64,000 nucleotides of DNA, from positions 9,453 to 73,452 of the forward strand of contig CAYHCG010000006.1 of the NCBI GenBank assembly GCA_964355135.1. Direction: 5' to 3'. The notes under the pieces are model-generated. The model saw nothing but the letters and a program-made list of their open reading frames with translations. It had not been told where the DNA came from and did no database searches. Positions 5,374 to 47,736 of the stretch are shown piece by piece. This DNA comes from Candidatus Woesearchaeota archaeon. Its GTDB lineage: Archaea; Nanobdellota; Nanobdellia; Pacearchaeales; GW2011-AR1. Both the position numbers and the translations under genes were made by a program. Positions within the stretch are counted from its first letter, which is position 1, and each line of letters starts with the position of its first letter.

Positions 5374-6447
5374 ATGATGAAAAGTTATTTTGAAACACGA
5401 GTAGGCCACAACGAACATCTAAGAAGGCTACTAGCAGGTTCTAAAGAAAGATTTTATAAGGGCGTGACGGAAAGTCTTTTTCAAGTTGATTTTAATGGAG
5501 AAGTTTCTTTACTAAGAGATTCCGACAAAATGCAAAATATTGTTTATCTGGAAAAGATAAGAGCGGAAGCTGGCGTTTTTGCTCAAAGATACTACAACAC
5601 ATTTGTAAATCAGGCTAACATGTTCAGATTAAGCCGGAGAGACAGAGACTCTTGGAACAAATGGGCGGACAGGGTTAAACAAGTCACATGGGCTAGCAGA
5701 GATGTTACTCTTCCGGATGAATCAGAATTAACCCAAAGAGCGAATAAACTAAGAGTATGGCTAAATGACAATATTGTAAAGAGTTTTGAACAAAATATGG
5801 CTTTATATAAATTAATGGCTCCACATAATTTTTGTATTTCTCCTTTTGTTTCATCCGATTTGGAGAAATCGATGTCCGATAACTTTTTGGGAGGTCTGGG
5901 AGAGTATCGGGTAATTTCTGGGTGGCTAAAAAGCCCCCTATTAATTTATAGTTCGCCTGGATATAGGTTTGATTTAGGGATGTGGGTGAATCCAGATAGC
6001 AGATTAAAGTTAAAGATGTATTGCAAACATGAAACGGACGGATTATTGGATGTTTTAGATGTAGAGGCACAATTCAGAGGAGGCAGGTTTGAGGATATTG
6101 TACATTATGATATAAAAAAGAGAAATACTCTTATGAAAATTTCTAATGCTCATGTTGAACGGGGTGAAATAATTGATGAGAAGGATAGTATAGTAGATTT
6201 TGAGATGAGTGGGAATCCTAGGAGCGGTTCAGTTAAGACGAGAATGAGAACATTGGGAGGACAAGAAAGGATGGTTCTCACTGATTTAGATAGTGCTAAA
6301 AGACAAATATTTGTTGTAAAATATTGGGCCTCTAACCCCGTTATTGCCGGAGGCGAGTTATTGAAGAGAGGAATAGAAATTATCGAGAACGACGGAAGAT
6401 ATGAATCCTTGGTTGGACTAGCGAAAAAGAAAGTAAGCGCGAGATAA
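5374..6447 (+). CDS. hypothetical protein
   Basis: 357-aa ORF of normal composition with no motif recognised. Confidence 0.5.
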   Translation: MMKSYFETRVGHNEHLRRLLAGSKERFYKGVTESLFQVDFNGEVSLLRDSDKMQNIVYLEKIRAEAGVFAQRYYNTFVNQANMFRLSRRDRDSWNKWADRVKQVTWASRDVTLPDESELTQRANKLRVWLNDNIVKSFEQNMALYKLMAPHNFCISPFVSSDLEKSMSDNFLGGLGEYRVISGWLKSPLLIYSSPGYRFDLGMWVNPDSRLKLKMYCKHETDGLLDVLDVEAQFRGGRFEDIVHYDIKKRNTLMKISNAHVERGEIIDEKDSIVDFEMSGNPRSGSVKTRMRTLGGQERMVLTDLDSAKRQIFVVKYWASNPVIAGGELLKRGIEIIENDGRYESLVGLAKKKVSAR

Positions 6448-6512
6448 TATTTTTTTAAGTAAGTGATATATCCTAGGAAAAGATTAATATATTCTATCTT
6501 GTTGTAATCTAT

Positions 6513-6713
6513 ATGGATGGCTCCATTTATTTATCAGATTTAATAAGTACAGGTCCTGCAGAAGTCCCTAGAATAAGTGATGATGAGAGAAGGGATTTTT
6601 CTGAGAGGGTTAGAATGGAAATGGCAAGGCTAGGATTCGATAAGGCTAATGAATTGACTGAAAGATCAACTATATTGACTGGACAAGATTATAGGGCGTA
6701 TATTAATTATTAG
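6513..6713 (+). CDS. small hypothetical protein
   Basis: 66-aa ORF in an otherwise empty gap. There is no other support. Confidence 0.3.
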   Translation: MDGSIYLSDLISTGPAEVPRISDDERRDFSERVRMEMARLGFDKANELTERSTILTGQDYRAYINY

Positions 6714-9353: not shown

Positions 9354-9746
9354 ATGGGTTCAAATAAAAGAGTAAAAATAGGAAAATCTAAAATTGTGGG
9401 GGCAGGAAGAGGAGTTTTTGCAGAACACTTAATCAAGAAAGGAGAGATAATTGAATATTGTCCAGTTCTTATTCTCCCAAAAAAAGATTATCCTATTGTT
9501 AAAAAGACACTTTTAAAAAATTACTATTTTATGTGGGGAAAGGTTACTTGCGGGATTTGTTTAGGTTTTGGTTCTCTCTATAATCATTCTTATGAACCAA
9601 ACGCAACATACAAGAAAGATATTAAAAAACAACTAATAAGGTTTTTCTCTATAAAGGATATTAAAAAAGGGAAGGAGATAACGGTCAACTATAATTATGG
9701 GAATTCCCAGAGTAAGAAAAAACTTTGGATAAAAGACATCAATTAA
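9354..9746 (+). CDS. SET-domain protein (lysine methyltransferase family)
   Basis: GAGRGVFA, NHSYEPNA (NHSCEPN-like) and ITVNYNYG motifs in a 130-aa protein. Confidence 0.8.
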   Translation: MGSNKRVKIGKSKIVGAGRGVFAEHLIKKGEIIEYCPVLILPKKDYPIVKKTLLKNYYFMWGKVTCGICLGFGSLYNHSYEPNATYKKDIKKQLIRFFSIKDIKKGKEITVNYNYGNSQSKKKLWIKDIN

Positions 9747-12285: not shown

Positions 12286-12407
12286 TGATCTTGCTGGGAT
12301 TTGAACCCAGGACCCCCGCCTCTCTTCGACTTCTCGATGAGAATGTATGCTCTAATGAACATGCGTCATATAAGAGCGGTGCTCTAACCAGGCTGAGCTA
12401 CAAGATC
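12286..12407 (-). tRNA. intron-containing tRNA, anticodon read as UAU (tRNA-Ile); 47-nt intron at 37/38 (plus-strand 12322-12368)
   Basis: Hand fold with acceptor GAUCUUG/CAAGAUC (7 perfect bp), D arm GCUC...GAGC and T arm CUGGG-UUCAAAU-CCCAG. The anticodon stem CCGCU/GGCGG has mature loop CUUAUAA. The intron junctions sit in 3-nt bulges flanking a short helix (BHB-like). Confidence 0.75.
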
Positions 12408-13804: not shown

Positions 13805-14389
13805 ATGATAATTGGGGTAAGTGGGCCTATTGCGGCTGGGACAGATAGTGTGGCGGCCATATTAGTTGAACAAGGATTTAAGTGGTTTTCTTTTTCTGAT
13901 GTATTAAGAGAAGAGGCTAAACTGCGAGGACTAGAGATAAATAGGAAAGCTTTGCAAGATTTGGGAGATGAGTTGAGAAAAACCGGAGGGACTGGAGCTA
14001 TTGCTAAGAAAATAATGGAACAGTTTGTGGAAGGCGAAAACTATGTTGTAGGCAATATCAGAAACCCGGGAGAAGTAGAAGAATTAAAAAAATTAAATGA
14101 TTTTTTTCTTATTAAGGTTGATGCATCTTTAGAAATCAGATTTGAAAGAATTAAATCTCGCAAGAGAGATGATGACGTGCTTGACTTTTCTGAGTTTAAA
14201 AAAGTTGAAGAAAGAGACTTAGGAATTGGACAGGAAGAACATGGTCAGAGACATGCAGATGTTTTTGAATTGGCAGACTTTGAAATTATTAATGAAGGAA
14301 CAGAAGAAGATTTAAGAAAAGAGATAGAAGCTATTCTTTCATTAATAAAGAGAATGCAGCACGCAATGTCGAGAACTGAAAGTTCTTGA
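13805..14389 (+). CDS. P-loop nucleotide-kinase-like protein with degenerate Walker A
   Basis: MIIGVSGPIAAGTDS sits where GxxxxGK[ST] is expected. Kinase-like length and layout. Paralogous to 14503..15057. The last 8 codons and the stop lie inside the hairpin element. Confidence 0.5.
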   Translation: MIIGVSGPIAAGTDSVAAILVEQGFKWFSFSDVLREEAKLRGLEINRKALQDLGDELRKTGGTGAIAKKIMEQFVEGENYVVGNIRNPGEVEELKKLNDFFLIKVDASLEIRFERIKSRKRDDDVLDFSEFKKVEERDLGIGQEEHGQRHADVFELADFEIINEGTEEDLRKEIEAILSLIKRMQHAMSRTESS

Positions 14390-14465
14390 GCACAACAAAG
14401 ATGCAATCTTTGTGCCGTCAAAATATCAAATATTTTGAGGTGATCAAGATACGCATATCTTGACA
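14367..14465. repeat. four-hairpin palindromic element, copy A (MITE/REP-like)
   Basis: The element is TGTCGAGAAC..GTTCTTGA, GCACA(ACA)AAGA..TCTTTGTGC, TCAAAATAT..ATATTTTGA and TCAAGATA..TATCTTGA-CA. Its ends TGTCGAGA and TCTTGACA form an imperfect inverted repeat (one G-U position). A second copy lies at 32356..32453. Confidence 0.7.
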
Positions 14466-14502
14466 TATAAAGTTTTAAAAGCTAGGATTTTATCGTGATT
14501 TT

Positions 14503-15057
14503 ATGATACTAGGATTTACCGGGACACTTGTTTCTGGAAAAGGGACTGCATCTAAAATATTAAGAGACGAATACGGTATGCAGATTCTATCGTTTTCCGA
14601 CGAAGTAAGGAAATTTATTAATGAAGACCTTACAAATAGGGGGCCAGTTGATAGAGAAAAGATGCAGTTTTGGGGAAATGAAGTAAGAAGCCAGTATCGG
14701 ATAGATTTCTGGGAGGAACGACTTTTTCCACAGATAGAGAAGAGATATTCTCAAGTGGTTGATAGTTTCAAATACACTGATCAAATTAAAAATTTTATGA
14801 GTAAATATGATCCATTTATATTAATAGCTTTTGATGCTGACCCTGAACTAAGATTTAAATGGATGAGGGAGAGAAATAGACCTGGAGATCCAGAAACTTG
14901 GAACGAATTTCTTGAAGCTGATCGTGTTGATAAGGAAGGATATAAGGAAGGGATCGGACAAAATACAAAGGGATGTATGGAAATAGCGGATTATAAAATA
15001 TATAATAATGGAAGTATAGATGATTTAGCAAGAAAAGTAAGAGAGTTAATATTTTAG
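14503..15057 (+). CDS. P-loop nucleotide-kinase-like protein (dephospho-CoA/dNMP kinase-like)
   Basis: MILGFTGTLVSGKGTAS is Walker-A-like. 184 aa. Paralog of the upstream gene. Confidence 0.5.
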   Translation: MILGFTGTLVSGKGTASKILRDEYGMQILSFSDEVRKFINEDLTNRGPVDREKMQFWGNEVRSQYRIDFWEERLFPQIEKRYSQVVDSFKYTDQIKNFMSKYDPFILIAFDADPELRFKWMRERNRPGDPETWNEFLEADRVDKEGYKEGIGQNTKGCMEIADYKIYNNGSIDDLARKVRELIF

Positions 15058-15099
15058 GAAAATGGCTAAATTTATTAAGCATCACTTTTTTGAGTTGTT

Positions 15100-16293
15100 A
15101 TGTTAATAGGATTAGTTGGTAGGCCTAATACTGGAAAAAGCACATTATTCAAAGCAGCGACTTTGTCTGATATCTTAATTGCAAATTATCCTTTCGCAAC
15201 AATAAAGCCAAACCACGCGATGGGTTACGTTAAGATATTGGATCTTGCGCCTGATTTTGGAAAAGTAAGTAATCCTCGCGAAGGTTTTGTAAAAGACGGA
15301 GAAGGAGTAAAGGGCAAATGGAGATTTGTGCCTTTTGATTTGATTGATGTTGCAGGTTTAGTTGAAGGGGCTAGTGAAGGAAAAGGCTTAGGTAATGAAT
15401 TTCTAAATGATTTATCTGGAGCGAATGCATTTATTCAGGTTGTTGACATGTCCGGAGAGACAGATGCTGAAGGCAAGCCAACTGAAGGCCATTATCCTGG
15501 AAAAGATATCAGTGTGATTGAAAGGGAACTGGATTTGTGGTATAAAGGAATATTAACAAAAGTCTGGAAGACTTTTGCAAGGACTCTAGAGATGAAAAAA
15601 GAGAATTTTGCTGAAGCTATAGCAAAACAATTTTCAGGACTGAAAGTTAGTGCAGATGATGTAAAACATGTTGTTATCTATGCAAAGTTTGACGCAGAGA
15701 AACCAACACTGTGGAATGATGGAGAAGTTTTTAGATTTGCTAGGGAATTACGTAAATTTACAAAACCTATGATTATTGCAGCAAATAAAATGGACAGAGA
15801 AATGTCCAAGGAAAATCTGAAGAGACTTAAAGAGGATTATAATTATCCAATTGTTCCATGTTTTGCAGACGGAGAATTAGCTTTGCGGGAAGCGGACAGA
15901 GCAGGCCTTATCGAATATTTGCCTGGGGATAATGACTTTAAAATTTTGAAACAGTTAAACGAAAAACAAAGTGAAGCGCTAGAAAAAATAAGATTATTTC
16001 TTAAAGAATTTGGAAGTACGGGAGTGCAGGAAATTCTCAATAAAGTAGTATTTGATGTTTTGAAATATATTTCAATATTTCCTGCTGGAGATAAGTTAGC
16101 TGACTCTAAAGGAAATGTTTTACCTGATTGTTTTTTGATGCCCCCTAATTCAACCGCACTCGATTTTGCCTATAAATTACATAGCGATATAGGAAAGAAT
16201 TTTATTAAAGCAATTCATATTAAAAGTAAGAAAGCTGTGGGCAAAGATTATGTTCTACAGCATCGAGACGGGCTAGAAATTATGGTAAAATAA
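15100..16293 (+). CDS. Obg/YchF-family GTPase with C-terminal TGS-like domain
   Basis: G1 GLVGRPNTGKST, G2 YPFATIKPN, G3 DVAGLV, G4 ANKMD. C-terminal VLQHRDGLEIMV is TGS-like. Confidence 0.85.
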   Translation: MLIGLVGRPNTGKSTLFKAATLSDILIANYPFATIKPNHAMGYVKILDLAPDFGKVSNPREGFVKDGEGVKGKWRFVPFDLIDVAGLVEGASEGKGLGNEFLNDLSGANAFIQVVDMSGETDAEGKPTEGHYPGKDISVIERELDLWYKGILTKVWKTFARTLEMKKENFAEAIAKQFSGLKVSADDVKHVVIYAKFDAEKPTLWNDGEVFRFARELRKFTKPMIIAANKMDREMSKENLKRLKEDYNYPIVPCFADGELALREADRAGLIEYLPGDNDFKILKQLNEKQSEALEKIRLFLKEFGSTGVQEILNKVVFDVLKYISIFPAGDKLADSKGNVLPDCFLMPPNSTALDFAYKLHSDIGKNFIKAIHIKSKKAVGKDYVLQHRDGLEIMVK

Positions 16294-20410: not shown

Positions 20411-23400
20411 ATGTCTGAAAAGCTTAAAAGATTTAAGGAAAGAAATAACAGTTTAGCTGAAAGAATATTTTTAGCCCAGAGATATAAAAAAGAAGTAATA
20501 GAAAAAGTACAAAAACTGGTCGCAAAGTTAAATTCTGGAGAAATAACTCGTAAAGATTATGATGAAAGTCTACAGAAAATATTTGGAGTTAGAACACCAA
20601 AAGAATGGCTAACTTATTATGATAATTACATAGAGACTTATGAAAGACAATTAAGTGAAAGCAATAGACAACTTAACAAAGAAAAACTAAAGAAAGCAGC
20701 ATTTGTTTTTGTGCCTATATTTTTAGTTTTATTTTCAGTTATCTTTTTTGTTTATTTCTCAGATAGAGCAATTACGGGATTGGCTGTGCAAAACAGTAAA
20801 GAAGTTTTTACACAAAACATTAATTCCGAATTTAGTTCTAGTGGAAGTTATACTTTTGAGGTTAAACAGAGTGGGAAACTAAATTGGGCTAAAGTTTCCG
20901 GCAATATTGAAGGGGAAGGAAATGTTAAAATTTACTTATTGGCAAACGGAGGTGAGATTTTAGTTTTAGATAGTACTGATTTAGAAGTTGAAGAAGTTGC
21001 TTTAACTGGAGGAGTCATTACTGGATTTAATGTTGAAGGTGCCGAGGACTCTGGAGGAGAGTCTTCTGATAGTTCAAGCGGCGGCTCTTCAGGCAGTCAA
21101 GCAAGTACAGGCGATGTAAGCTCAACTAGTGGAGGAAGTTCTGAAGCTCCTTCACCAACTTCAGAAAGTACTAGCGAAACAACTTCTAGTAGTGATTCAA
21201 GTGAAAGCGCTTCAAGTCCACCTTCTGAGAATACTGTGGAAACTCCTGCAACTACGGAAAGTGAAACTCCTGTTGAAAGTAATGAAGTTAGCAGTGGGAC
21301 AACCTCTGAAGAAGTAATTGCGGGAAATGAATCGCAAAATAATGAGGAAACTAATGCTACTGGCGGTGAACCAACTCAAGAGAACACTACAGTTTCAGGG
21401 CAAACAACAACTAAAGAAAAGAAAAAGAAATTCTCAGATTATTGCAAAGAGAGTTGCGATTTGTCTAATTTGGAATTGGACAGAGATAGTTATGAATTGA
21501 GAGTTGAAATAAATGGGGCGGTAAAATTAAATCTAGATAAGATAAGATATGAGATAGAATTTGAGAAGACAGGAGAAATTATAACAGAAGAAAATGAAAC
21601 TGTACAGAACGAAACAAAAGAAATTACTCCTGAAATTGAATTAAACGAGACTCTTCCTGAGCTAAACCTTACTAATGTAAGTTCTGCTCCATTAATATTA
21701 AAACAAATCCCTAATCTTGAAATAGAAGTTAATTCAAGCTTTAATTTGACTTTAAGTGATTACTTTCTAAATGCCGAAGATTATGATATTAATAAAGTTG
21801 AGAACATTACTTTTGATCTTGCTGGAGATAATCTAGAGATTCTTCCTGATAAGGGCTTTTTGGGGAACAGAACTGCTGAAATAATTGCAGAGAATTCTTT
21901 TGGCAAAAATGAAAGCAATGAGTTTACAATTAATGTTGTTGAAAACATGCCCAAAATAGGAAATGCTACATCTAATATCACAACTTTACAGTATAAGGCG
22001 GTTATCAACAGACCAACTAAGTGGATTAAGATTTTGAACGCAACAGGGGGAGACTTAACTATTGAGCTTCCTAAGGAAGCGGAAAATATAACTGTAAAAA
22101 CGGGAAGCGATGTTGGCCTGGCCCTACAGGAATATGAGGATTATGAAGGGCTGGTTGATGGGGCTGACAAAGAAGATTTAATTTCAGGAGGGATAACGGG
22201 GAATGTAGCATTAGATCTTAAAGAAGGGAAGGGCCTTATACCAAGGTTTATTGATTGGCTGAAGAACTTGTTTTCTAAGGGGATAACTGGTAGAGCAATT
22301 ACGGAGCAAACTCTTGAAGCGCAAATAACCGAGACTAGTGAAAACACCATAGTCGATGTTACAGATATTGTAAATCAGACTCAAACTGGGGAAGTTGCAA
22401 TAGAGTATTACACTCAAGGGCCGGCAGCTAGAGAAGAAAATTTGACTAATGGGAAGAGAGTGGTTGTTTCTGGAAAAGATGAATTAAACTTTACGGATAT
22501 TTTGGCATTTGCAGAAATTGAAGAAAAAGTAGAAGTTGCGGATAGCAGTACAATAAAAATTTATTGGAGGGAAAACGCGAGTTTTATTAATTTTAGTGTA
22601 GGAGATTTGGATGGAAATGGGAAAATAGATTATATTGAATGGATCGTTCCTCATTTAAGCAACCAGACTTATGATATCATACTCATCACCCATGCAGAAC
22701 ATCTTGATAGTAACAGGACATTTATTTCTGATATATATGAAAGTGTTAGGGAATTAGATGGAAATTGGTCGGAGAGTATTGTTGACGGAGAGTATGTTAG
22801 GGTTACTTTTGAGAAGAATTTGACTAATGTTAACGATATCACTGTTTATGCTAAAGGAATAAACGGAACTGGACAAATAGAGGTTTATGAGTTTAATGAC
22901 ACACGTTTACTTGCGACATTCACTGATATACTTAATGAGACTTATTATAAGATTTATTTGACAAACTTAAGTAACTCGAGTAATTATTCACAAGGAGTTT
23001 TTGATTTACGAATTTTAAATGCCTCAGTGGAATTTGATTTAATTATTGATCCAACTTTGACTTTAAATGCTACTGGTGGAACGGGAACAAATACAACTGT
23101 TGAGGCAGGAAACTTTACACATTTGAGCATTGGAAGCTCAACTATTGGATTTGTTAATAATACCAATGTTGTTGCTTATTATCCTTTTGATACTAATACT
23201 TCTTCAAATACTGCCTTTGATTATTCCGCGAATAATTTAGATGCTGGTTTTATTAATACGGGGCCAAGATATGATGCAGGATTACTTGGAAACTCTTATT
23301 ATTTCAATAATTCAGTTTGCTTGAACACAACAAACAGTGCAGCATGGAATGTTACTAATCAGGTAACTCTTTCTGCTTGGGTTTATAGAAATAATAGTGA

Positions 23401-26400
23401 TACGGGCAGTGACTCTATTTTTATGCGAGGAGGCTCAGTTGTAGCAAATACTGAAATTGGTCTTGGAGTATTTCAATCTGGACTTTTAAGATTACTTATA
23501 AAAAATACTACACAGACTAATGCTGGAACATGTAACAGCGGTTCTGCATTACCTACCTTTAATTGGACTCATATTGCAGCGACGTATAATGGAACAACGT
23601 CTGTACTCTATATCAATGGTGTTGCAGAAACTCCTTGTACAGTTACTACTGGGAATATTATCTTTGCTGGAAACTCTCCTAGTATTGGTTGCCTCAAAAC
23701 AACGGCACAAGCATTTAACAACAATTGGCAAGGATGGATAGACGACTTAATGTTTTTGAATACCACTTTAAATGCAACACAAATTTCCCAAATTTATAAT
23801 AATCAAAGCTTGAGATTATTTTCTCGCGGAGAGCAGATATTTTCTAATTTAAATGGCTCGGGTAGTGGGGCTGAAGAAGAAATTAATATAAGGATAAATG
23901 CGAGCATGAATTTTGGCAGTTCGATAAATGTATCTTTAGGGAATTCTTCTGGAGGAACTTATGTTTATGGAAACGAATATGCTTTTAGCAATAATGTTGC
24001 AAATAATATTCCTTTAGGGACTCCAAATAATTATTCTTTAAAGTTTATATTTTATGCAGGTAATTCTTCTGCAAACTCTTTTATATCTCCTACTTTAGAG
24101 AATTATATTCTTGCTGAAAGCATTTTAGTAGTTCCTTCATTGACTTTGAATGCCCCGGCCAATGCAAGTACATTTAAAGAGGGAATATTTAATATAACTC
24201 TGAATGCAACTATTTTAGATAATGCGGCGACGTCAGCATATATTTACGGAGTTAATTCTTCTAACACTGCGAACTTTTACAAACATGGATTATTGTATCA
24301 GGCATTTGGCTTAGTAAATGGAACTCAAATAACTTACAATTGGACTTCTCCCGTAACTGTTCCTGATGCTTCTACTGTTGTCTTGTATCATTTGGATAAT
24401 AATTCTGTTTATGGGGAAAACCAAACTAGGGCTTGGGATTATGTTTCTGGAAATGTTAATTTAACTGCTGTTGGAAATGCTTTTCCAAATGTAAGTGGGG
24501 GGAAATTTGCTGGGGGATGGACTTTTGATGGAAGTGGAGATTATTTGAATGATGCCTCAAATATTGGAGCTTTAAATGGTTATTATCAATCCGGAACATT
24601 TTCTGCATGGGTTAAGAGAGCGGGAGCGAGTTCGAATGGATATGAAACTATAATTCAGGAAGGAGATAATACCAATGGTTTTGTGATAACAAATAATTGC
24701 GGATGGGATAATATGACTCAGGTCGGAACAGTATACATCCCAGAATTTGATCCTGTTGTTGTAATAGCAGAAACACCTAATAGTATTATTTCTGATGGAA
24801 ATTGGCATTTGATTACAGGCGTTTTTGATAATATCATTGCATTTAAACAATATATTTATGTTGATGGAGTACTTAGGAGTTCTGCAAGTGTGGGGGCGCC
24901 TAGTGATAGTGTTAAAGGAGTAAAGGTGGGAGGAGTACTGTCTTCCGTAGGGCAGAGTTGTGACGGAAGTGCAAATGCTGGCTCATTCAATGGAAGCATT
25001 GATGAAGTTGGAATTTGGAATAGGAGTTTAAGCGCAACTGAGATAATGAGCATGTATAGATTAAATGCACCGAAGTATTTTTGGAAAGTAAATGTTACGG
25101 ATTCTGTTGGAAATAGTAATGAGAGTGAGACACGCGAGTTTTATGTGAATCCTCAGACTGTTCCTTATACTGCATTGAATGGGCCTGCGAACAGGTCTAT
25201 ATTTTGGAAAGATATATTTAACATTACTTTGAATGCGACTGGTTATGATAATGATGATAGTTTTACTATTGAGATTTACGGGGCGAATTCTACAAATGCC
25301 ACTCTCTTTTATAATTATGGATTACTTTATAGACAGCAGGGAGTCAGTAATAATACGGCAGTTAGTTATAATTGGACTAATTCACTTGTAGATCCGGATA
25401 TTTATCTATATGCAGATGCCTTGTATCATTTAGATAATAATTCCAGATTAGGGGAGAATGATACAAGAGTGATTGATTCTTATACTGGAGATGGCGATGC
25501 TTTTAATTTAACACCTGTAGGAAACGCATATCCAAATATGACGGGAGGAAAATTTGCAGGGGCTTGGGAATTTGACGGAAATGGAGATTTTCTAAATGGT
25601 TCAAACTCTTTGCGCCCTGCCGGTGATCCTTCTTTTTCTGCATGGGTACGGCGAGCAGGAAATAGTTCAACTGGATATGAAACTATTGTTCAGGATAATG
25701 CAGGAAGTGGAGGGTATTCTTTAACTGCCAGCTGTAATAATAGTTTATTAGCGTTTTCAGCATATGATGGTACTTTGTTTGCAAAAGCTTCAACATCTAA
25801 TTCTATTCTCTCTGATGGTCAGTGGCATCATGTTTTGGGCATTCATAGTTCTTCTTACTCTAAAATTCTTTTATATGTTGATGGAGTTTTAAAAGCAAAT
25901 GCAACTTCATCAGTAGCTGTTCCGATAAACGATCCACATAAATTAGTTATAGGGGGTCATGGGGCAGGAGATTATGGTAGTGGTCCAGGAGGGACATCTT
26001 GTGTCTTTGGCGGCTCTTCTAGTGCAGGTTCATTCAACGGAAGTATTGATGAAGTTGCAGTCTGGAATAGCGATGTTTTTCAAATAGACACTGGCAGCGG
26101 TTTACATCTTAATACTAGTAATTTATATAAACTTATTAAAGGAAAATATTATTGGAAAGCAAACATTACTGATTCCTTGGGGAATAATAATGAAAGCGAA
26201 ACTCGCGAATTCGTTGTTAGGGATACGCCTTATGTTTTAGTGAATTCAAATATGAATTGCACCGACTTAAAGACTGAGGCTGTAAATTATTATTATGGTT
26301 ATTCTTGCACTGCTTCTGGGTATTCTACTTGTGTTGGACTAAATGCAGATTTGAATATTACAAATGGAACTTTGAGTGTTCCTTCAAATTGTAACATTCA

Positions 26401-29299
26401 ATTTAATCAAAGCAGTAATGGGCAGTATAGTTTTATTATTGAAGGAACTGGGAAATTGAATTTGAGCGGGGGGAATATTACCTCATCTTCTTCAACAAGT
26501 AGATTCAATTTAACTTCTTCAGTTGGAGTTATCAATTATCCTGGAAGTTATGGGAACTTTAGTTCTGCGAATGTTGTGGGGAGCGCTAATTTCTCTGATT
26601 CAAGAATTAATTTTTACAATTTTAATATAACTGGGCGGATGATAATTCTGAATTCGACGGATATCGCAACTACAGGGTATTCTATTGGTAGCGGGGGTAG
26701 ACTTGATAGGCAGTGGAGGTTGAATGTTACTGTTTTGGCCTCTGGCGCAGTAGTTTCAGGAGCAAATGTAACTGCAAGGAATGTTTCATTAAATATATTT
26801 GATTCTAAATCCACAGGTTCTGATGGCGCAGCCTGGCTTAATCTTTCAGAGTATGTAGATACTGGTTCGGGTAAAATGCATCAAAATAATTATACGATTA
26901 ATGTTACGAAGAATGGATATTTTGCAAACAGTACCACTATTAATTTGACTAGTGATAGTAGCAAATTGATAACCCTTGGAACGTATGATACCATTGAAGT
27001 TTCAAGTACTGAAACTTTACATGACGTATTTGCAAGAATTAACGATGTAACAATTTTTAATAATCTGAGTTCTGCATCTAGACCTTGCAGATATGTTGCT
27101 AGTGCATCGATAAATATCACTAGCGGGCATTTGGTTATGGAAGGATGTACCTTGGAGATGAATAGTAGCTTAGATAGTACTTATAAATTAATAGTTGGAG
27201 GTGGTCGATTGACTGCTAATTACTCAAATATAACTAGATTCGGATCTAATAATTACGACTTTTACACTGCGTCATCTGCGGCGACGCAGGTTGTTTTGAA
27301 GAATAGTTTTGTTTCAAGAGCGGGACACTTAAATTCTCCAAATTTGAGAGGTTTGACTTTGAATACAAATAATGTGACTTTTATTAATAATACTTTAGTT
27401 GATGCAGATGTTGCAAATTTAGAATTAGGAGCAAATGGAATAGTTGTTGAAAAATCTTTATTTTTGGGTCCTTCTGGAGTTACTAATTATCCTATTTTTG
27501 TGAGTGCTAATGATTCTATCATTTTAGATTCAAATTTGTCTGGTTCAACTGAAGAAGATGTGAGATTATCTTCTAGAACAAACATTACTTTTTTAAATAC
27601 AAATTATACGGATGAGGGTTTGGAAGCTGGAGCAGTTAATGTTTCCTTATTCAAAAAATGGTATGCGGGTGTTAGGGTTATAAATTCCAGCGGTGGCGGG
27701 GTTGAGAATGTAAACGTTACATTCTATAACAATAGCGGGAGTTTAACTCAAAGTGCATTGACAAATTCTTCTGGAGATATAGATACGCAGAATGTGACTC
27801 AATATGTTTCTAATGGGACAAACAGATTTTATCACACAAATTACAATATTACTGCAACAAAAGTAGATGGCATAAATGGTACAATAAATGTTAACATAAC
27901 CCAGAGTACCAATTATACAATTAGTCTTTCAACTTCTACACCAACAGTAACTTTTGTTTCTAGTATAGGAAGTGTAAATCCTTTGGGCGCAAGCGTCAGG
28001 AATATTACTTTTAACTTTACTGTCCAGCACGGAGACGGAGGGGAATATATCAACATTACAAGTTCTAAGGCTAATTTTACTTACGGAACGGAACCAATTA
28101 GATTAAACGACACTTGTAACTTACTGACAGATCAAAATACATCCACTACTCGAAACTTTACTTGTACTATTGGAATGTGGTATTTTGACGTTGCTGGAGA
28201 TTGGAATGTAAGCATTTATGTTGCAGATACGAGAGGTAATTCTACAACAAATATAACTACATTTACTTATGCAACATTACAGGATTTTGTTGTTTCCCCG
28301 ACATTGGTCACATTTGGAACTATAAGTCCTATTGATGTCAATAAGACTCCCTCAAATGATCCTTGGATATTGAATAATACCGGAAATTATGATCCGGTAA
28401 ATATTTCTATAGTCGCATTAAACTTACATGGGGAGACGACACAGTCGGAGTTTGTAGGGGCAGGTAACTTTAGCGCGTCTAATAATACGAGCTCCCCACC
28501 TTCTCCTTTGGAATGTAGCGGAAATTCTTTAATTAACGGTACAAATGTGAACATAACTAATGCTATTTTACCTAGGGGAAATAATTCTCTGAATTATGTT
28601 AATTCGACAAGTGGGCAAGAACAGTTATATCTCTGCCTTAAACAAATTCCTTCTGCGCTTTCGCAGCAGACTTATTCCACAAGTGGAGCGGGGGCTTGGT
28701 CAATCAGGATTTTAGTTGGCGTCTTTGCAGTTGGAGGAGGAATAAACAGAAAGAGAAAAAAGAAGTCGAACAAGCATAATAATTTGCTGGAGCTTGATGC
28801 TGAAAACATACTCGAGGTGCTGGATAAAAGATTAAGAGAGACTTACGAATTAGGATTAAATGAGATATTAGATATTGCAAGGAAGAGAAATGCAAAGAAG
28901 GAAACCAATAGGGAAGTAAAGAAAGAAATAAAGATACCAATTGAGGTGTTCAGTCAGAAAATTGGAATTTCAGAATCAATCTGCAAGTATCTTAGGGATA
29001 ATCTCCATTTAAGATATAACGAAATCTCCAGAGTGGTAGGCAGAGATCAAAGAACTGTTTGGAATAATTATAGAAATGCAAATAAGAAGATGAATGAAGA
29101 AATTAAAGTCAATGAGAAAACCATGTATATTCCAATGAAGGCATTTTTGAATAATAAATTAAGTATGCTTGAAAGTGCAATCTTTTACCTTAGAGAAGAG
29201 AGATATAGAAATATAGAAATTGCTTCTATGCTTGGAAAGGATCCAAGAAACATTTGGACCATATATAATAGGGCGAAGAGAAAAACTAATGGTAATTAA
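20411..29299 (+). CDS. giant surface protein A (2962 aa)
   Basis: N-terminal ~95-aa cytoplasmic domain, then a TM (aa ~96-116, nt 20696-20758) and a Ser/Thr/Glu-rich linker. LamG/ConA-like motifs follow (WTHIAATYNGTTSVLYINGV; SFNGSIDEVGIWNRSLSATEI; GSIDEVAVWNS). After a beta-helix-like region (~26230-27900) and a terminal Ig-like module containing MWYFD come the hydrophobic segment AWSIRILVGVFAVGGGI (about 28694-28744), RKRKKK and the HTH tail. GGAGG RBS. Confidence 0.9.
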   Translation: MSEKLKRFKERNNSLAERIFLAQRYKKEVIEKVQKLVAKLNSGEITRKDYDESLQKIFGVRTPKEWLTYYDNYIETYERQLSESNRQLNKEKLKKAAFVFVPIFLVLFSVIFFVYFSDRAITGLAVQNSKEVFTQNINSEFSSSGSYTFEVKQSGKLNWAKVSGNIEGEGNVKIYLLANGGEILVLDSTDLEVEEVALTGGVITGFNVEGAEDSGGESSDSSSGGSSGSQASTGDVSSTSGGSSEAPSPTSESTSETTSSSDSSESASSPPSENTVETPATTESETPVESNEVSSGTTSEEVIAGNESQNNEETNATGGEPTQENTTVSGQTTTKEKKKKFSDYCKESCDLSNLELDRDSYELRVEINGAVKLNLDKIRYEIEFEKTGEIITEENETVQNETKEITPEIELNETLPELNLTNVSSAPLILKQIPNLEIEVNSSFNLTLSDYFLNAEDYDINKVENITFDLAGDNLEILPDKGFLGNRTAEIIAENSFGKNESNEFTINVVENMPKIGNATSNITTLQYKAVINRPTKWIKILNATGGDLTIELPKEAENITVKTGSDVGLALQEYEDYEGLVDGADKEDLISGGITGNVALDLKEGKGLIPRFIDWLKNLFSKGITGRAITEQTLEAQITETSENTIVDVTDIVNQTQTGEVAIEYYTQGPAAREENLTNGKRVVVSGKDELNFTDILAFAEIEEKVEVADSSTIKIYWRENASFINFSVGDLDGNGKIDYIEWIVPHLSNQTYDIILITHAEHLDSNRTFISDIYESVRELDGNWSESIVDGEYVRVTFEKNLTNVNDITVYAKGINGTGQIEVYEFNDTRLLATFTDILNETYYKIYLTNLSNSSNYSQGVFDLRILNASVEFDLIIDPTLTLNATGGTGTNTTVEAGNFTHLSIGSSTIGFVNNTNVVAYYPFDTNTSSNTAFDYSANNLDAGFINTGPRYDAGLLGNSYYFNNSVCLNTTNSAAWNVTNQVTLSAWVYRNNSDTGSDSIFMRGGSVVANTEIGLGVFQSGLLRLLIKNTTQTNAGTCNSGSALPTFNWTHIAATYNGTTSVLYINGVAETPCTVTTGNIIFAGNSPSIGCLKTTAQAFNNNWQGWIDDLMFLNTTLNATQISQIYNNQSLRLFSRGEQIFSNLNGSGSGAEEEINIRINASMNFGSSINVSLGNSSGGTYVYGNEYAFSNNVANNIPLGTPNNYSLKFIFYAGNSSANSFISPTLENYILAESILVVPSLTLNAPANASTFKEGIFNITLNATILDNAATSAYIYGVNSSNTANFYKHGLLYQAFGLVNGTQITYNWTSPVTVPDASTVVLYHLDNNSVYGENQTRAWDYVSGNVNLTAVGNAFPNVSGGKFAGGWTFDGSGDYLNDASNIGALNGYYQSGTFSAWVKRAGASSNGYETIIQEGDNTNGFVITNNCGWDNMTQVGTVYIPEFDPVVVIAETPNSIISDGNWHLITGVFDNIIAFKQYIYVDGVLRSSASVGAPSDSVKGVKVGGVLSSVGQSCDGSANAGSFNGSIDEVGIWNRSLSATEIMSMYRLNAPKYFWKVNVTDSVGNSNESETREFYVNPQTVPYTALNGPANRSIFWKDIFNITLNATGYDNDDSFTIEIYGANSTNATLFYNYGLLYRQQGVSNNTAVSYNWTNSLVDPDIYLYADALYHLDNNSRLGENDTRVIDSYTGDGDAFNLTPVGNAYPNMTGGKFAGAWEFDGNGDFLNGSNSLRPAGDPSFSAWVRRAGNSSTGYETIVQDNAGSGGYSLTASCNNSLLAFSAYDGTLFAKASTSNSILSDGQWHHVLGIHSSSYSKILLYVDGVLKANATSSVAVPINDPHKLVIGGHGAGDYGSGPGGTSCVFGGSSSAGSFNGSIDEVAVWNSDVFQIDTGSGLHLNTSNLYKLIKGKYYWKANITDSLGNNNESETREFVVRDTPYVLVNSNMNCTDLKTEAVNYYYGYSCTASGYSTCVGLNADLNITNGTLSVPSNCNIQFNQSSNGQYSFIIEGTGKLNLSGGNITSSSSTSRFNLTSSVGVINYPGSYGNFSSANVVGSANFSDSRINFYNFNITGRMIILNSTDIATTGYSIGSGGRLDRQWRLNVTVLASGAVVSGANVTARNVSLNIFDSKSTGSDGAAWLNLSEYVDTGSGKMHQNNYTINVTKNGYFANSTTINLTSDSSKLITLGTYDTIEVSSTETLHDVFARINDVTIFNNLSSASRPCRYVASASINITSGHLVMEGCTLEMNSSLDSTYKLIVGGGRLTANYSNITRFGSNNYDFYTASSAATQVVLKNSFVSRAGHLNSPNLRGLTLNTNNVTFINNTLVDADVANLELGANGIVVEKSLFLGPSGVTNYPIFVSANDSIILDSNLSGSTEEDVRLSSRTNITFLNTNYTDEGLEAGAVNVSLFKKWYAGVRVINSSGGGVENVNVTFYNNSGSLTQSALTNSSGDIDTQNVTQYVSNGTNRFYHTNYNITATKVDGINGTINVNITQSTNYTISLSTSTPTVTFVSSIGSVNPLGASVRNITFNFTVQHGDGGEYINITSSKANFTYGTEPIRLNDTCNLLTDQNTSTTRNFTCTIGMWYFDVAGDWNVSIYVADTRGNSTTNITTFTYATLQDFVVSPTLVTFGTISPIDVNKTPSNDPWILNNTGNYDPVNISIVALNLHGETTQSEFVGAGNFSASNNTSSPPSPLECSGNSLINGTNVNITNAILPRGNNSLNYVNSTSGQEQLYLCLKQIPSALSQQTYSTSGAGAWSIRILVGVFAVGGGINRKRKKKSNKHNNLLELDAENILEVLDKRLRETYELGLNEILDIARKRNAKKETNREVKKEIKIPIEVFSQKIGISESICKYLRDNLHLRYNEISRVVGRDQRTVWNNYRNANKKMNEEIKVNEKTMYIPMKAFLNNKLSMLESAIFYLREERYRNIEIASMLGKDPRNIWTIYNRAKRKTNGN
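28745..29296 (+). other. C-terminal tail of giant A with two sigma70-region-4/LuxR-like HTH units
   Basis: Unit 1 is about 28928-29092 (ISESICKYLRDNLHLRYNEISRVVGRDQRTVWNNYRNANKK). Unit 2 is about 29124-29290 (LSMLESAIFYLREERYRNIEIASMLGKDPRNIWTIYNRAKRK). Compare the sigma r4 pattern LS..E..V..L....G.S..EIA..LG.S..TV....hRA..KL. Confidence 0.65.
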
Positions 29300-32229: not shown

Positions 32230-32528
32230 ATGTGTTTATGTTACTATACTTATGAGGAAAAGTCTGCCAAAGATTATATGGAAGGCAAAATGACTATGAC
32301 TGAGGCAGCAAGAAAAGCAAGTTTAACGGTCTGGGAAATGGAAAAATATTTGATATGTCAAGAATTTTCAATTCTTGAGCACAACAAAAATTAAGGATTT
32401 TTGTGCCATCAAAATAAGAATTTTGAGGTGATCAAGATGCGCGCATCTTGACAGAAAAAGGTTACAAATCCGATTATTCTGTTGATGACTTAGAAAAAGA
32501 ATTAAATTTAATGGAAAGAAGGTTATAA
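32230..32528 (+). pseudogene. UPF0175-like small gene split by the four-hairpin element
   Basis: The 5' part (32230-32355) encodes ...MTEAARKASLTVWEMEKYLI. The 3' part (32454-32528) encodes EKGYKSDYSVDDLEKELNLMERRL*. The 98 nt between them (32356-32453) are the element, and removing them joins the two parts in frame. Confidence 0.5.
32356..32453. repeat. four-hairpin palindromic element, copy B
   Basis: Same hairpin order as copy A: TGTCAAGAATT..AATTCTTGA, GCACA(ACA)AAAAT..ATTTTTGTGC, TCAAAAT..ATTTTGA, TCAAGATGC..GCATCTTGA-CA. Substitutions relative to copy A are paired across the stems. Confidence 0.7.
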
Positions 32529-34824: not shown

Positions 34825-37800
34825 ATGACTGAAAAAATTGATTTTCTAAATGAGAAAAGAAAGGAATTACTGGAAAGAATTAATGTTGCGCAAAATTACA
34901 AAAAAGAAGTTGGCGAAAAAGTTCAGAAACTTGCAGCAAGATTTAGCATAGGAGAACTGAATTTTTTTGAGTATCATCAGGAACTGAAGAAAAATTTTGG
35001 AGATAAGTCGCCTGCTGATTGGATCGAGTACTATGACAAGTATATTGAAAAGTGCCGCACGGAGCTTAAAAAGTGCGGCGAAGAAATAAACGAGTTGAGA
35101 ATAAAAAAAGTTGCAAGATTTTCTCCTTTGATTTTGGTTATTTTTATCTTTGCACTAGTTCTTTATTATAATTTTAAAGATAGTTCTATCTTACTTTCAC
35201 CTTCCGAAATATTCACTGAAAAAATAAATTTTGTGGCTAGTGAAGATGGTTCATTTATGTTTGAGCCACAACAGGGAGGGAGACTTAGCAGTTTGAGAAT
35301 TTCAGGAGATATTAATGGAGGAGGAAATGTTAAAATTTATCTCCAAGCGAATGGAAATGAATTATTGATTTTAGATAGCGACGCTATAGGGTATAAAGGA
35401 ATAAGCGGGCTTGCAATAGAAGAATTCGATAGAGTTCTTGATGAAAATGAAAGTATTGAGAAAAATGCAACTATTTTAGTGGAAGAGAATATTGAAACTA
35501 TTGAAGTTAACGATAGTTTAGATGATATAGAAAATAAAACTGAAGCTAACTCAGAAATCAAAAAAGGATTTGTTAATTATTGCAATGAAACTTGTGATTT
35601 AGACAGTATTGATTTAGGAGACTCTTATGAAATAAAAATTGTGATAGGGGGAGAGGCCGAGGTTATAATTGAGGAGATTAACTATAAGATTACTAAGAAA
35701 GAGGTAAGAGAAGATATCGAAATAGAAACTCCTAGAAATGAGACAAATCAGACTGTAGTTAGAGATATAGAAAAAATTGAAAGAAAAAATGCACAAGGAA
35801 AAGAAGTAGTTGTGAAGAAAAAGCAAGGCGAGAAAAATATAATTGTAGAGACTACAGTTCCTATTGAGTGGAACGTGAAAGACGCAGGAAAAATCAGAGT
35901 AAGATGGAAAGAAGGAGGAGAAGAAATTAATTTTAATGGTGAAGATACAAATAATGACGGAATTATCGATAGTATTACTTGGGTTGTCAGTGATCTAGAA
36001 AGAGATCAAACTTATGAAATTATTGTGATCACAAAAGCAGAACATCTTGATACTGATAGAAGTTTTGTTAGTGATATTTACGATTTAGTTAAAGAGCAAG
36101 ATGGAGTTTGGAGTGAGAGTATTGGGGATGGAGAGTATGTAAGAGTTACTTTTGAAATCCCCCTTGATAGTACGAGAGATATAACACTCTGGTCTAGAAC
36201 GGTGAGTGGGAATCCTCGCGTTGAAGTGTATGAAACAAATGGAAATGTAACAGTTGCTTCATTTGAAAGTTTGAATGATGACGAATATAATAAGGTTTAT
36301 TTGACGGGACTTTCTGGAACACAAGAGACATTTGATTTGAGAGTTGTTGATGGTTCAATTGAACTCGATCATGTTATTGATCCTTATTTTTCTGATAAGG
36401 TTAAACTGTATTTTAATAATACTGCTACTCCAATTGGAGGAGCATGTCCTACTGGAAATAAAAAAATGGGAACTGCTGCACCCAACTCTGTTGTTATAAT
36501 CTGGCCTGGAGAGTTTGACAGCGGTGTTCCTGGGAATACGGATGCAGGGCAGTGGTATTCTGGGAGTGTTAACAGAGCAAATACGACATTATCTACTCAA
36601 ATTGCTAGCGCTACCCAGAGTTCAAGAAATTCAAATAGCTTCGGGCAGGGATGGATGTACGATGAGGATTTGACAGGACTGACTTTAGATGCAGGAAACT
36701 TTAGTTTTAATCTTTCTTTGATGGGTGGGCAGATGTCTGCAATAAACAGCGCAGAAAGGATCTTTGCCAGAATAAGTGTTGTTAATTGTAATGGTGGGAA
36801 TTTTAATTTAGTGCAAGATCTCACATCGACCAATATTGTTGGGGAAATAAGTCATACTGGGGGTCAAAACGGGTGGAAGGCAAATGAGGGAGGAAGAATA
36901 AACCATCCAGCTGTTTCTGCCGTCGTAAATGTCAATGTTAATTTTTCAACAAATCCTTATACATTCAAAAATGGGGAGATGTTGTTTATAGAATTGGGAT
37001 TTGGAGATGCTAGTAGCAACATTGATAGAACTATAGGATTGAGATACAATATTGCAAATTCTTTTGTTGTGACTCCTCCGTTTTTAGATAATACTCTGCC
37101 TTATGCTATTTTGAATGAACCTATGAATGACTCTAGATTTGTGGTAGGCGTATTTAACATTTCATTGAATGCAACAGTTGCTGATGAAACTATTTCTGAC
37201 TTGCTAAATGGGGAAATTTATGGGGTGAGAAACGGAAATGAGGCAGATTTTTACAAACATGGATTATTGAGTCGGAGATTTAATTTTACTAATGGAACGC
37301 AGGCGGTTTATAACTGGACTGCTCCTGTTGTAATTCCTGATGCTTCTACTGTTGTATTGTATCATTTAGATAATAATTCAAGATACGGAGAGAGTCAGAC
37401 CGAAGCAGTAGATTATGTTTCCGCGAATGTTAATTTAACTCCCGTCGGGAATGCTTTTCCTAATCAGACTAGCGGAAAGTTTGCAGGAGGGTGGGAATTT
37501 GACGGAAACGGAGACTACTTGGGTGATGCTTCCAATTTAGGGGCATTAAACGGAGTGGATAATGCAACTTTTGCTGCGTGGATAATGAGGGCTGGAGCAA
37601 GTTCTACGGGTCTAGAAGTTATTGTTCAGGAAGGTGGGCAGGGCAGAGGATTGGCACTGATTGCGAACTGCAACAATAACATGATGCAGTTTGGGGTAAA
37701 AGAAGGAGGCGTTTATTATGCTGCTAATGCATCTACTTTCTTGCTTAATGATGAGAACTGGCATCACTTGGCCGGAGTGTATGATGGGGATGCAGACACT

Positions 37801-47416: not shown

Positions 47417-47736
47417 TTAATTGTTTGTATATAAAGTATATCTACTTTATAGAACAATAGTTATTTTATACGAAATGAATTCGTCTAAAATAAGAATTCA
47501 TGAGAAACTTGCTTTCGAATGAATTACTATCTGTGCTTAAGCACCTATGCGCGAATAGCGCATTAACTTGTTGTATATAAAGTATATCTACTTTATAGGA
47601 ATTTAGCTATTTTGTTTGAAGCATCAAGATGCAATACATCTTGAACGAAGTGAATTCGTATAAAATAAGAATTTATTCAAAATTTACTTTTGAACTAAAT
47701 TACTAAATGTGCGTAAGCACTTTGTCTAACAAGGCA
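47414..47736. repeat. tandemly duplicated intergenic unit (~147 and ~170 nt) rich in hairpins
   Basis: TGTATATAAAGTATATCTACTTTATAG is identical at 47425-47451 and 47571-47597, and each unit ends GCATTAA(A)C. Hairpins are GTGCTTAAGCAC / GTGCGTAAGCAC, ATGCGC-GAATA-GCGCAT, and in unit 2 TCAAGATG-CAATA-CATCTTGA. Confidence 0.7.

Follow-up and report, generated by a model that had tools for sequence, protein, structure and literature searches.

Hairpin-ended repeats of groundwater Woesearchaeota are likely small, modular mobile DNA that inserts without target-site duplication

What is an element of about 100 nt, folded into four hairpins, that occurs twice in an archaeal contig with stems that differ in sequence and stay paired? 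We addressed this question for a 64,000-nt stretch of DNA (hereafter the window; positions 9,453 to 73,452 of contig CAYHCG010000006.1, assembly GCA_964355135.1) from a Candidatus Woesearchaeota archaeon, a member of the DPANN archaea, which lies in a 135-kb contig of the Hainich groundwater metagenome (well H52). An original prediction, made from the letters of the window, had read the paired stem differences as selection on structure, in RNA or cruciform DNA, and had offered as roles a non-autonomous mobile element, a stabiliser of mRNA ends like the REPs (repetitive extragenic palindromes), or a protein-binding array built on the half-site TCAAGA/TCTTGA. Comparison of the window with related loci (numbered L006, L027 and so on) makes the first role the likely one: both copies would be members of a family of small mobile DNA, non-coding and non-autonomous, resembling REPs, REPINs (REP doublets forming hairpins) or MITEs (miniature transposable elements with inverted repeats), with hairpin ends, moved in trans and inserted with a 0-bp target-site duplication.

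The two copies, A and B (Table 1), were confirmed to carry four hairpins (H1 to H4) in the same order with conserved linkers, and pairwise alignment showed that their likeness runs from (A)TGTC to GACA, ending exactly at TGTC(A/G)AGA...TCTTGACA. Since the 27-nt flanks of the two copies are unrelated, the copies are discrete and not part of a larger duplication. They score 88.5 (A) and 86.6 bits (B) against the covariance model, and four hairpins are present in each fold (z = -5.5 for A and -3.9 for B versus dinucleotide shuffles). The 17-mer TTCTTGAGCACAACAAA and the 18-mer TTTTGAGGTGATCAAGAT occur exactly twice each in the window, where 0.34 and 0.21 occurrences with up to three mismatches are expected by chance; approximate matches at 23318 and 41185 lie in unrelated sequence and were dismissed as chance. 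All of the predicted paired differences were present: the H1 arms read TCGAGAAC/GTTCTTGA in A and TCAAGAATT/AATTCTTGA in B, one H2 pair is G-C in A and A-T in B, and one H4 pair is A-T in A and G-C in B, where the stem is also longer by one G-C pair (GC/GC). A predicted ACA bulge in H2 fared less well. It belongs to one of two possible pairings, and the minimum-energy fold uses the other, ACAAAGAT/ATCTTTGT plus GCC/GGT; the columns of both alternatives never vary, so that neither is favoured by sequence changes. The outer ends do form terminal inverted repeats (TGTCAAGA/TCTTGACA), matching at 8 of 8 positions in copy B and 7 of 8 in copy A, in which the G at 14371 forms a G.T pair within H1. 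Against an expectation of 0.22, the window contains four matches to the motif TCAAGA-N4-16-TCTTGA, and the related hairpin that had been placed near 47625 is also there. This solo unit, 29 nt long, is inserted in one half of a tandem intergenic duplication, the second copy, and is absent from the first (47405-47545). The duplication itself has a unit of about 146-175 nt.

What surrounds copy B indicates that it is a precise insert splitting a small gene of the UPF0175 antitoxin family. Deleting 32356-32453 fuses two open segments into a 66-aa open reading frame (ORF), which matches PF03683 (UPF0175) across the junction (E = 4.9e-6; 26.6 bits versus a cut-off of 27.9). Homologues with 61-67% identity (among them P0002 and P0005) read ...WEMEKYLIEKGYKSDYS... 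straight through the copy B site, and an intact gene (L060:1501-1707) aligns on both sides at the DNA level, with the window having exactly 98 nt extra. Copy A lies inside the ancestral penultimate codon (GCA A^TA TAA) of an AAA_17 kinase-like gene, where it replaces the last residue of the protein. Positions 14367-14389 are the last two bases of an ATG codon followed by SRTESS and a stop, giving an ORF that ends ...QHA-MSRTESS; without copy A, the ORF 13805-14389 would end ...QHAI at 189 aa, and the nearest relatives have 188 aa and end ...KGAI or ...KEVV. At a syntenic locus (L057, 3001-5382, versus window 13805-16293) the two AAA_17 kinase-like genes share 4 nt (ATGA), with neither a spacer nor an element between them. 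In the window, copy A and 37 nt separate these genes, and the downstream gene has its own Shine-Dalgarno-like flank, GTGAT.

Further sites were resolved outside the window. One is filled in three loci (L027, L034 and L020), reading CATTCGAAT[element]TCTCCAGACAGAGG (CGAAT[element]TCTCC), and empty in two (L028 and L032), reading CATTC(T/G)AAT^TCTCCAG(A/C)CAGAGG (CGAATTCTCC or CTAATTCTCC; the caret marks the junction). Together with the intact gene of L060, these loci provide empty counterparts in relatives; every contig from the same population as the window carries both copies, leaving no empty allele there. In L013 the element stands between a stop codon and the next start (TAAA^TGAAC), and its last A rebuilds the ATG. 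Among the boundaries considered, an element running TGTC...GACA with a 0-bp target-site duplication is the only one that fits all resolved sites. Three other models were rejected: duplications of 2 bp ('AT') or of 1 bp and a repeat of 9 bp (ATGTCAAGA, with the flanking A/T) each conflict with copy B, with L027 or with both sites. A tally of the flanks listed gives A as the base just outside the element (T on the other side) for about 37 of 48 ends, or about 77%, and since the flanking A/T come from the target at resolved sites, the preferred target is A^T. The sites are otherwise diverse, with no common core sequence. Comparators at the DNA level underlie copy B and L027, protein ends and synteny underlie copy A, and L013 and L006 were inferred. 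Most copies are intergenic, and a systematic search for copies that interrupt genes found none beyond copy B and those of L006.

These sites bear directly on whether the family could be a classical MITE, derived from an insertion sequence with a DDE transposase and spread by cut-and-paste with staggered target cuts. The original description of the termini as MITE-like holds for the inverted repeats; a classical DDE-type MITE does not fit, because the target is not duplicated at the resolved sites. To rescue a 2-bp or 1-bp duplication one would have to assume chance mutations or element ends that disagree between sites, we found no longer element bounded by these ends in about 450 kb of related DNA, and each terminus is itself a hairpin, which a transposase that binds duplex DNA would not need. 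Thus, although the elements are small, non-coding and multi-copy, and carry a perfect 8-bp terminal inverted repeat with the TG...CA termini that are typical of DDE substrates, we consider this origin very unlikely.

We retrieved further members of the family with the exact-match pattern GAGCACAACN{15,40}GTGCCN{15,45}GAGGTGATCA. Among reference genomes this identified five true copies in two AT-rich 'Candidatus Woesearchaeota archaeon' metagenome-assembled genomes, the only reference genomes with the core, and five chance matches, four of them in high-GC bacterial contigs and one in a Bacteroides contig. Groundwater metagenomes added about 25 copies in AT-rich contigs, along with four GC-rich chance matches. 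The window copies are therefore far from alone, with about 30 copies found, of which 22-26 are distinct after de-duplication. In the viral contigs of IMG/VR, the core pattern had no matches, an H1-plus-linker pattern had 68, all of them chance matches in coding DNA, and a pattern for the palindrome made by joined ends had three. Divergent copies of the core were sought with a covariance model and none turned up; the model also picked up a different multi-hairpin family with a common terminal TCAAGG...CCTTGACAT hairpin. As far as sampled, the repeat family appears to be confined to a clade of groundwater Woesearchaeota.

Nearly all complete copies start (A)TGTCAAGA and finish TCTTGACA(T/C), with the inverted-repeat ends kept across about 25 unique copies and few single-base variants (e.g. 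TGTCCAGA and TCTGGACA). Between these ends, the family is a mosaic of modules. Its building block is a palindrome that forms a hairpin and invariably has TCAAGA/TCTTGA as its foot, and 47 of the 69 distinct hairpins with this foot have perfect arms of at least 8 bp. At least ten different stem extensions were found beyond the foot, and in H4 modules of the long type the upper stems differ yet stay complementary. H1 and H4 each come in many types of 20-130 nt, all palindromes with the TCAAGA/TCTTGA foot and freely combined; they are interchangeable modules. The simplest arrangement is a mini-element of 57-120 nt without the core, in which two tandem units bounded by TG...CA are joined by a short linker (GAGCA-YGNTC) in the form TGTCAAGA-x-TCTTGA-GCATGC-TCAAGA-y-TCTTGACA; linker variants are GAGCATGATC, GAGCACGATC, GAGCACATTC and GAGCACCATC. 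Adding about 50 nt (H2, H3 and GAGGTGATC) to a mini-element between GAGCAC and GATC gives the four-hairpin form. This core is near-invariant and consists, in order, of linker GAGCACAAC, H2, GTGCC, H3 and GAGGTGATC, with variation confined to the two loops. Both forms occur in L006, at identical positions of two paralogous sites and with related H4 modules. These sites lie in paralogous ORFs of about 35 aa (M.V..KRKL..FAS.FPR^WKDDTL..FVYE.GG), with the element at the same codon boundary (caret). The 122-nt four-hairpin form shifts the frame and the 57-nt mini-element is read through in frame, and a hand count of the ORF flanks gave about 11 synonymous versus about 10 non-synonymous differences. 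A hicA gene, with a hicB-like ORF, stands between the two elements.

The elements also act as points of breakage or recombination and as sites of nested insertion. Two loci (L012 and L036) have the upstream flank, H1 and core in common and differ in H4 and the downstream sequence, a pattern that points to recombination at the elements. Further TCAAGA hairpins are held within the long H1 modules of L010, L021 and L022, and nested insertions within the H4 modules of L026 and L020. At least two other families of hairpin repeats coexist with this one, which we refer to as 'Z' and a TAGATAATCCCC... element. Z consists of two hairpins, ATGGAGAATTCGG...CGAATTCTCC and then AGACAGAGGATTTG...CAAATCCTCTGT, and is itself a target into which the TCAAGA element inserts, as in L027; H4 of L026 and that of L035 hold another nested repeat, the third, TAGATAATCCCCATGATTGGG...GGGAAGACCTATA.

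Breakpoints of this kind would also be expected of a site array for a host site-specific recombinase or DNA-binding protein that marks module boundaries, in the manner of Xer/dif or integron attC sites. Such an array would account for the four TCAAGA half-sites in two inverted pairs, for the resemblance of the linker TCTTGA-GCATGC-TCAAGA to the junction of joined ends, TCTTGA-CATG-TCAAGA, and for the position of elements beside toxin-antitoxin modules (hicA between two of them in L006, and UPF0175/PIN next to elements in L025). Tyrosine or serine recombination needs a matching crossover region, however, and the insertion sites are diverse, with only A^T in common. The window holds no regular cassette arrays, its two copies being 18 kb apart, and no integrase was seen adjoining elements among the Pfam-scanned genes of the window or the listed families of related loci. 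We therefore regard a site array as quite improbable; the TCAAGA/TCTTGA half-site proposed in the original prediction is instead probably the recognition site of the mobilising enzyme.

The conservation of pairing raises the question of whether the structure is needed in RNA or in DNA. Under the RNA explanation, the family would be a non-coding RNA with a functional fold of four hairpins, either a small RNA gene or a cis-acting mRNA element (a REP-like stabiliser of 3' ends or a portable ribosome-binding site), which spread by duplication. Folding well beyond that of shuffled sequences would suit such a role, as would the core helices, in which 99.4% of cells are paired, 16 of 20 pairs never vary, and three pairs carry changes in both partners (five cells in all). 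In L004 and L010, a few G.T pairs of long-form H4 modules fit the + strand only, and in L013 the start codon rebuilt by the last base of the element is preceded by GAGGUGAUC and then H4. Against this, the elements are randomly oriented with respect to the genes beside them: of 27 distinct core copies, 9 were on the same and 12 on the opposite strand as the upstream gene, with 13 and 12 for the downstream gene. The reverse strand also folds about as well. The summed fold energy over 22 elements was -1013 kcal/mol for the + strand and -966 kcal/mol for the - strand, with 59 versus 65 G.U pairs, and since these energies and counts are nearly equal on both strands, there is no strand signature. 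The element had no match in Rfam at gathering thresholds across the whole window, and positions 14300-14550, with the limit relaxed to E = 10, gave only two chance-level matches (E > 7). Copies within ORFs and within other repeats, exchange of whole hairpin modules, and mini-elements without the core likewise speak against an RNA. A coding role was also considered and rejected; ORFs that start with ATG cross some copies on either strand, and neither frame nor stops are conserved.

As most differences in H1 and H4 across the family are whole-module replacements rather than stepwise compensatory substitutions, and as the stems fold equally on both strands in elements of random orientation, the reading of the covariation as selection on RNA structure is not supported. 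A REP-like stabiliser of mRNA ends finds no support either, in view of the same random orientation and of insertions inside ORFs. The loops of the core point the same way. Across loci, H2 and H3 loops occur as reverse-complement pairs (CAAAG/CTTTG, CAAGG/CCTTG and TGAAA/TTTCA), which suggests repeated loop inversions mediated by the stems, a process at the level of DNA. This pattern fits recognition of hairpins in single-stranded DNA, or a DNA process that preserves palindromes; an RNA fold fits less well. Taken together, we judge a structured RNA to be unlikely.

An RNA role would also suit the near-invariant core with its linker GAGGTGATC, just 5' of H4. This linker was invariant in 16 of 16 distinct core sequences aligned, although the search pattern itself required GAGGTGATCA, and is presumably a nine-base complement of the conserved 3' end of 16S rRNA (GAUCACCUC), giving it a Shine-Dalgarno-like look. 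Copies in which H4 starts TCAAGATG read GAGGTGATC, 3 nt and then ATG; the resulting mini-ORFs are not conserved.

A second RNA-level explanation is that the element is intron-like, the transcript being cleaved on either side of the terminal helix and its exons joined (...TATTTGATA^GAAAAAGG...), which would make insertion into genes harmless. Removal of exactly 98 nt restores the UPF0175 frame, with a 3' part that is intact and identical to the homologue consensus, and both L006 ORFs are interrupted at the same codon boundary with the substitution pattern given above. Copies A and B, that of L013 and the two of L006 appear to be sense-oriented (the L006 mini-element being inferred from its four-hairpin paralogue), and the archaeal host has at least one likely intron-containing tRNA. 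The sense-oriented sample amounts to only three to five cases, though, and most copies are intergenic in either orientation. Archaeal splicing by way of a bulge-helix-bulge is impossible here, as the junctions face each other at the end of a perfect 8-bp helix; that motif (two 3-nt bulges, 4 bp apart) was found in none of the folds, and the exon contexts are unrelated, with exon sequences that differ everywhere. Known self-splicing introns are larger than the 98 nt of the element. In the penultimate codon occupied by copy A an intron would be purposeless, and the 57-nt mini-element of L006 is just read through in frame. We thus think it highly improbable that the family is an intron. If it were one, which we hold to be just as improbable, a cut-and-ligate activity at the blunt base of the terminal helix would keep the UPF0175 and L006 ORFs functional, and the element would represent an intervening sequence that is mobile, defined by its structure, independent of the bulge-helix-bulge and located in protein-coding genes of archaea.

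Many discrete copies, two precise gene insertions and a site found both filled and empty bear out the mobile-element role of the original prediction. Under the mobile-DNA explanation, the unit of movement is exactly TGTCAAGA...TCTTGACA, which enters sites without gain or loss of target bases and preferably at A^T. A trans-acting enzyme encoded elsewhere in the genome would recognise the hairpin feet and cut two bases outside each of them (TG-TCAAGAAC-loop-GTTCTTGA-GC and ...TCTTGA-CA). Recognition would most likely take place on single-stranded DNA, because self-complementarity extends past the six conserved bases at all termini, although their stems differ widely in sequence.

The search for this enzyme covered the window and related loci. 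No transposase was identified in the window by Pfam analysis of the called genes at about 4.5-42 kb and ten further ORFs, with a few long ORFs left unscanned (such as 52104-61103), in agreement with the original prediction. A Pfam scan of 150 ORFs from related loci gave no transposase family with two or more members among the 25 commonest of 101 families, a weak negative. Composite elements, with TGTCAAGA paired to TCTTGACA at a distance of 0.4-5 kb, yielded nothing convincing in about 450 kb of related DNA, and neither those loci nor IMG/VR revealed a cognate autonomous insertion sequence sharing these ends. Two transposase genes occur on contigs with elements, and both were set aside. The first, a Y1_Tnp gene of the IS200 type (PF01797, E = 5e-25), was found in L039 with an IS608 TnpA query and confirmed by Pfam; an element is on the same contig, but the hairpins that flank the gene are GC-rich and unrelated to the TCAAGA family. 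The second is an IS110-family gene (DEDD_Tnp_IS110 plus Transposase_20) in L028 and also in L049-L056, in eight contexts. The IS110 copy in these loci has the ends ACCAATAGAA...GGATGCTAAC and the target GTATCTGAC^AGATATT. With its own ends, guide and target, it was rejected as the mobiliser, and its adjacency to the L028 mini-element (about 30 nt for the element and 230 nt for the DEDD transposase) is incidental. The sequence downstream of the IS110 gene (CTGTATCTGAC, CTGTAGTTGAC or CTGTATTTGAC) co-varies with the left target flank (GTATCTGAC, GTAGTTGAC or GTATTTGAC), a guide-like change in step with the left flank being seen in L055 and L056, and it looks like a bridge or seek-RNA guide encoded at the right end.

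Among 256 Nanobdellota proteomes, K07491, the REP-associated tyrosine transposase (RAYT), is reported as the sole KEGG transposase orthologue with strict matches (bioRxiv 10.64898/2026.05.13.725050). Since Y1 HUH enzymes are present in the lineage and their chemistry does not duplicate the target, we infer that an enzyme of the IS200/RAYT type is the leading candidate mobiliser, an assignment made tentatively and with well below even probability. At a similarly modest probability, DPANN archaea may have a transposition chemistry not yet described that acts on this family, inserting hairpin-ended TG...CA elements bluntly at A^T.

Several points weigh against the mobile-DNA explanation as it stands. 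No enzyme gene is linked to the repeat family, and the ends are unlike the substrates of IS200 or REP transposases, the symmetric TG...CA arguing somewhat against Y1 HUH. Perfectly symmetric TG...CA termini are more typical of the substrates of DDE transposases, and IS200/IS605 elements have no terminal inverted repeats and need a target of 4-5 nt in the left flank, a feature absent from our sites. Few independent events underlie the 0-bp duplication and the preference for A^T, and retrieval by exact match favours conserved cores, a sampling bias. Mobility by itself leaves the near-invariant 50-nt core, with its 9-nt Shine-Dalgarno-like part, unexplained, and the core may have a function of its own. 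These features of the core, the apparent sense orientation of three to five gene-associated copies and the coding-like substitutions of L006 leave a small probability of a role at the RNA level.

Table 1. Positions of the repeat copies, their host genes and other features in the window and in related loci.
Feature	Position	Strand	Remarks
Copy A	14367-14465	+	99 nt, TGTCGAGA...TCTTGACA; from sequence and fold
Copy A hairpins	H1 14369-14389, H2 14395-14413, H3 14414-14441, H4 14444-14463	+	
Copy B	32356-32453	+	98 nt, TGTCAAGA...TCTTGACA; from sequence and fold
Copy B hairpins	H1 32358-32378, H2 32384-32404, H3 32405-32429, H4 32432-32451	+	
Invariant linker GAGGTGATC	14437-14445 and 32425-32433	+	just 5' of H4
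Solo hairpin unit	47616-47644 (hairpin 47624-47644)	+	TTGAAGCA-TCAAGATG-caata-CATCTTGA
AAA_17 kinase-like gene	13805-14389	+	last 7 codons and stop supplied by copy A
UPF0175 gene, 5' part	32230-32355	+	residues 1-42, end ...WEMEKYLI
UPF0175 gene, 3' part	32454-32528	+	EKGYKSDYSVDDLEKELNLMERRL, then stop; open and in frame once copy B is removed
Tandem intergenic duplication	47405-47715		
tRNA, 122 nt	12286-12407	-	Rfam match, model positions 1-71
Giant ORFs	20411-29299, 34825-39702, 52104-61103		2962, 1625 and 2999 aa
PT-HINT (pretoxin Hint) protein	42321-44258	+	
PT-HINT (pretoxin Hint) protein	47737-50634	-	
PT-HINT inverted repeat	43821-44207 versus 47764-48153		249 nt and 107 nt
Paralogous ORFs of about 35 aa	L006 4367-4600 and 5258-5480		
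'Z' repeats	L028 3436-3532 (reverse complement); L032 1289-1384 (reverse complement); L027 about 6430-6660		
IS110-family gene	L028 1730-3195		
Y1_Tnp gene	L039 8700-9152	-	

Other features of the window were recorded alongside the repeats (Table 1). The 122-nt tRNA, matched by Rfam and missed by ARAGORN, is probably an intron-containing archaeal tRNA. The three giant ORFs have 300-nt repeat segments in common at 62-80% identity, and the first two, which carry Laminin_G_3 domains, share many shorter in-register repeats; they likely encode surface proteins with shuffled modules. Two PT-HINT proteins are encoded facing each other, and their 3' parts form an inverted repeat that is 72-74% complementary, an arrangement that resembles a polymorphic-toxin cassette.

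No prior description of the family was found in the searchable literature on DPANN or woesearchaeotal repeats, MITEs or introns; the kind of element is familiar, and this family and its style of insertion appear to be undescribed. DPANN genomes are tiny and reportedly hold very few transposases, and here a mobile family would be active or recently active. Its insertions split genes and lead to truncated ORFs being mis-called, such as the 54-aa and 194-aa products of the window, and the elements lie at breakpoints of rearrangement and probably cause metagenome assemblies of the clade to fragment. The invariant core with its perfect anti-16S sequence hints at a secondary function.

Set against known systems, the combination of perfect TG...CA inverted termini, hairpin ends, absence of target duplication and an A^T target is matched by no single known transposase family. 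Helitrons and IS91 (HUH Y2) come close in target choice, as their insertions fall between A and T, duplicate no target and carry a hairpin close to one end; Helitron ends are 5'-TC...CTRR-3' without an inverted repeat, unlike those described here, and no Y2 gene was seen in our loci. Helitrons are also large and, to our knowledge, eukaryotic. The bacterial Correia/NEMIS, ERIC, RUP and BOX elements, at 100-150 nt with inverted repeats, strong structure, modular build (boxA-B-C) and promoter- or ribosome-binding-site-like signals, are alike in size, inverted repeats, structure, modularity and insertion near or within genes. Those derived from DDE elements, such as Correia, create target duplications such as TA, whereas the woesearchaeotal family does not. 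Closer in host are the palindrome-associated transposable elements (PATEs) of haloarchaea such as Haloquadratum, which derive from IS200/IS605 and, as here, are archaeal, non-autonomous and hairpin-ended and leave no target-site duplication; an IS200-like Y1 gene is also present in a related contig. PATEs differ in having asymmetric ends and a fixed 5' target of 4-5 nt, in contrast to the perfect inverted repeat of our elements, whose left flanks share only the adjacent A.

The REP, REPIN and bacterial interspersed mosaic element (BIME) sequences, mobilised by RAYTs of the Y1 HUH type, resemble the family in their short hairpin palindromes, which occur singly, paired or as mosaics with defined linkers, in being mostly extragenic and multi-copy within a lineage without target-site duplication, and in the coexistence of several families whose units occasionally lie inside genes. 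REP features, including an unpaired GTAG or CGTC tag, are as described (PMC3733652). That tag is absent from our elements, which read TG-TCAAGA...TCTTGA-CA with the outermost TGTC inside the inverted repeat. REP stems are GC-rich and those of the woesearchaeotal family AT-rich; a REPIN forms one long hairpin, whereas our elements set two tandem hairpins within the terminal inverted repeat. A RAYT gene is single-copy and flanked by its repeats, and in the loci covered here the one comparable gene seen is the Y1_Tnp gene of L039 amid unrelated hairpins. REPs and REPINs are moreover bacterial, and our host is a DPANN archaeon. Finally, the Rickettsia palindromic elements offer a parallel for palindromic repeats in protein-coding genes, as with the L006 mini-element that is read through in frame; they add in-frame peptide inserts, whereas copies A and B bring stop codons.

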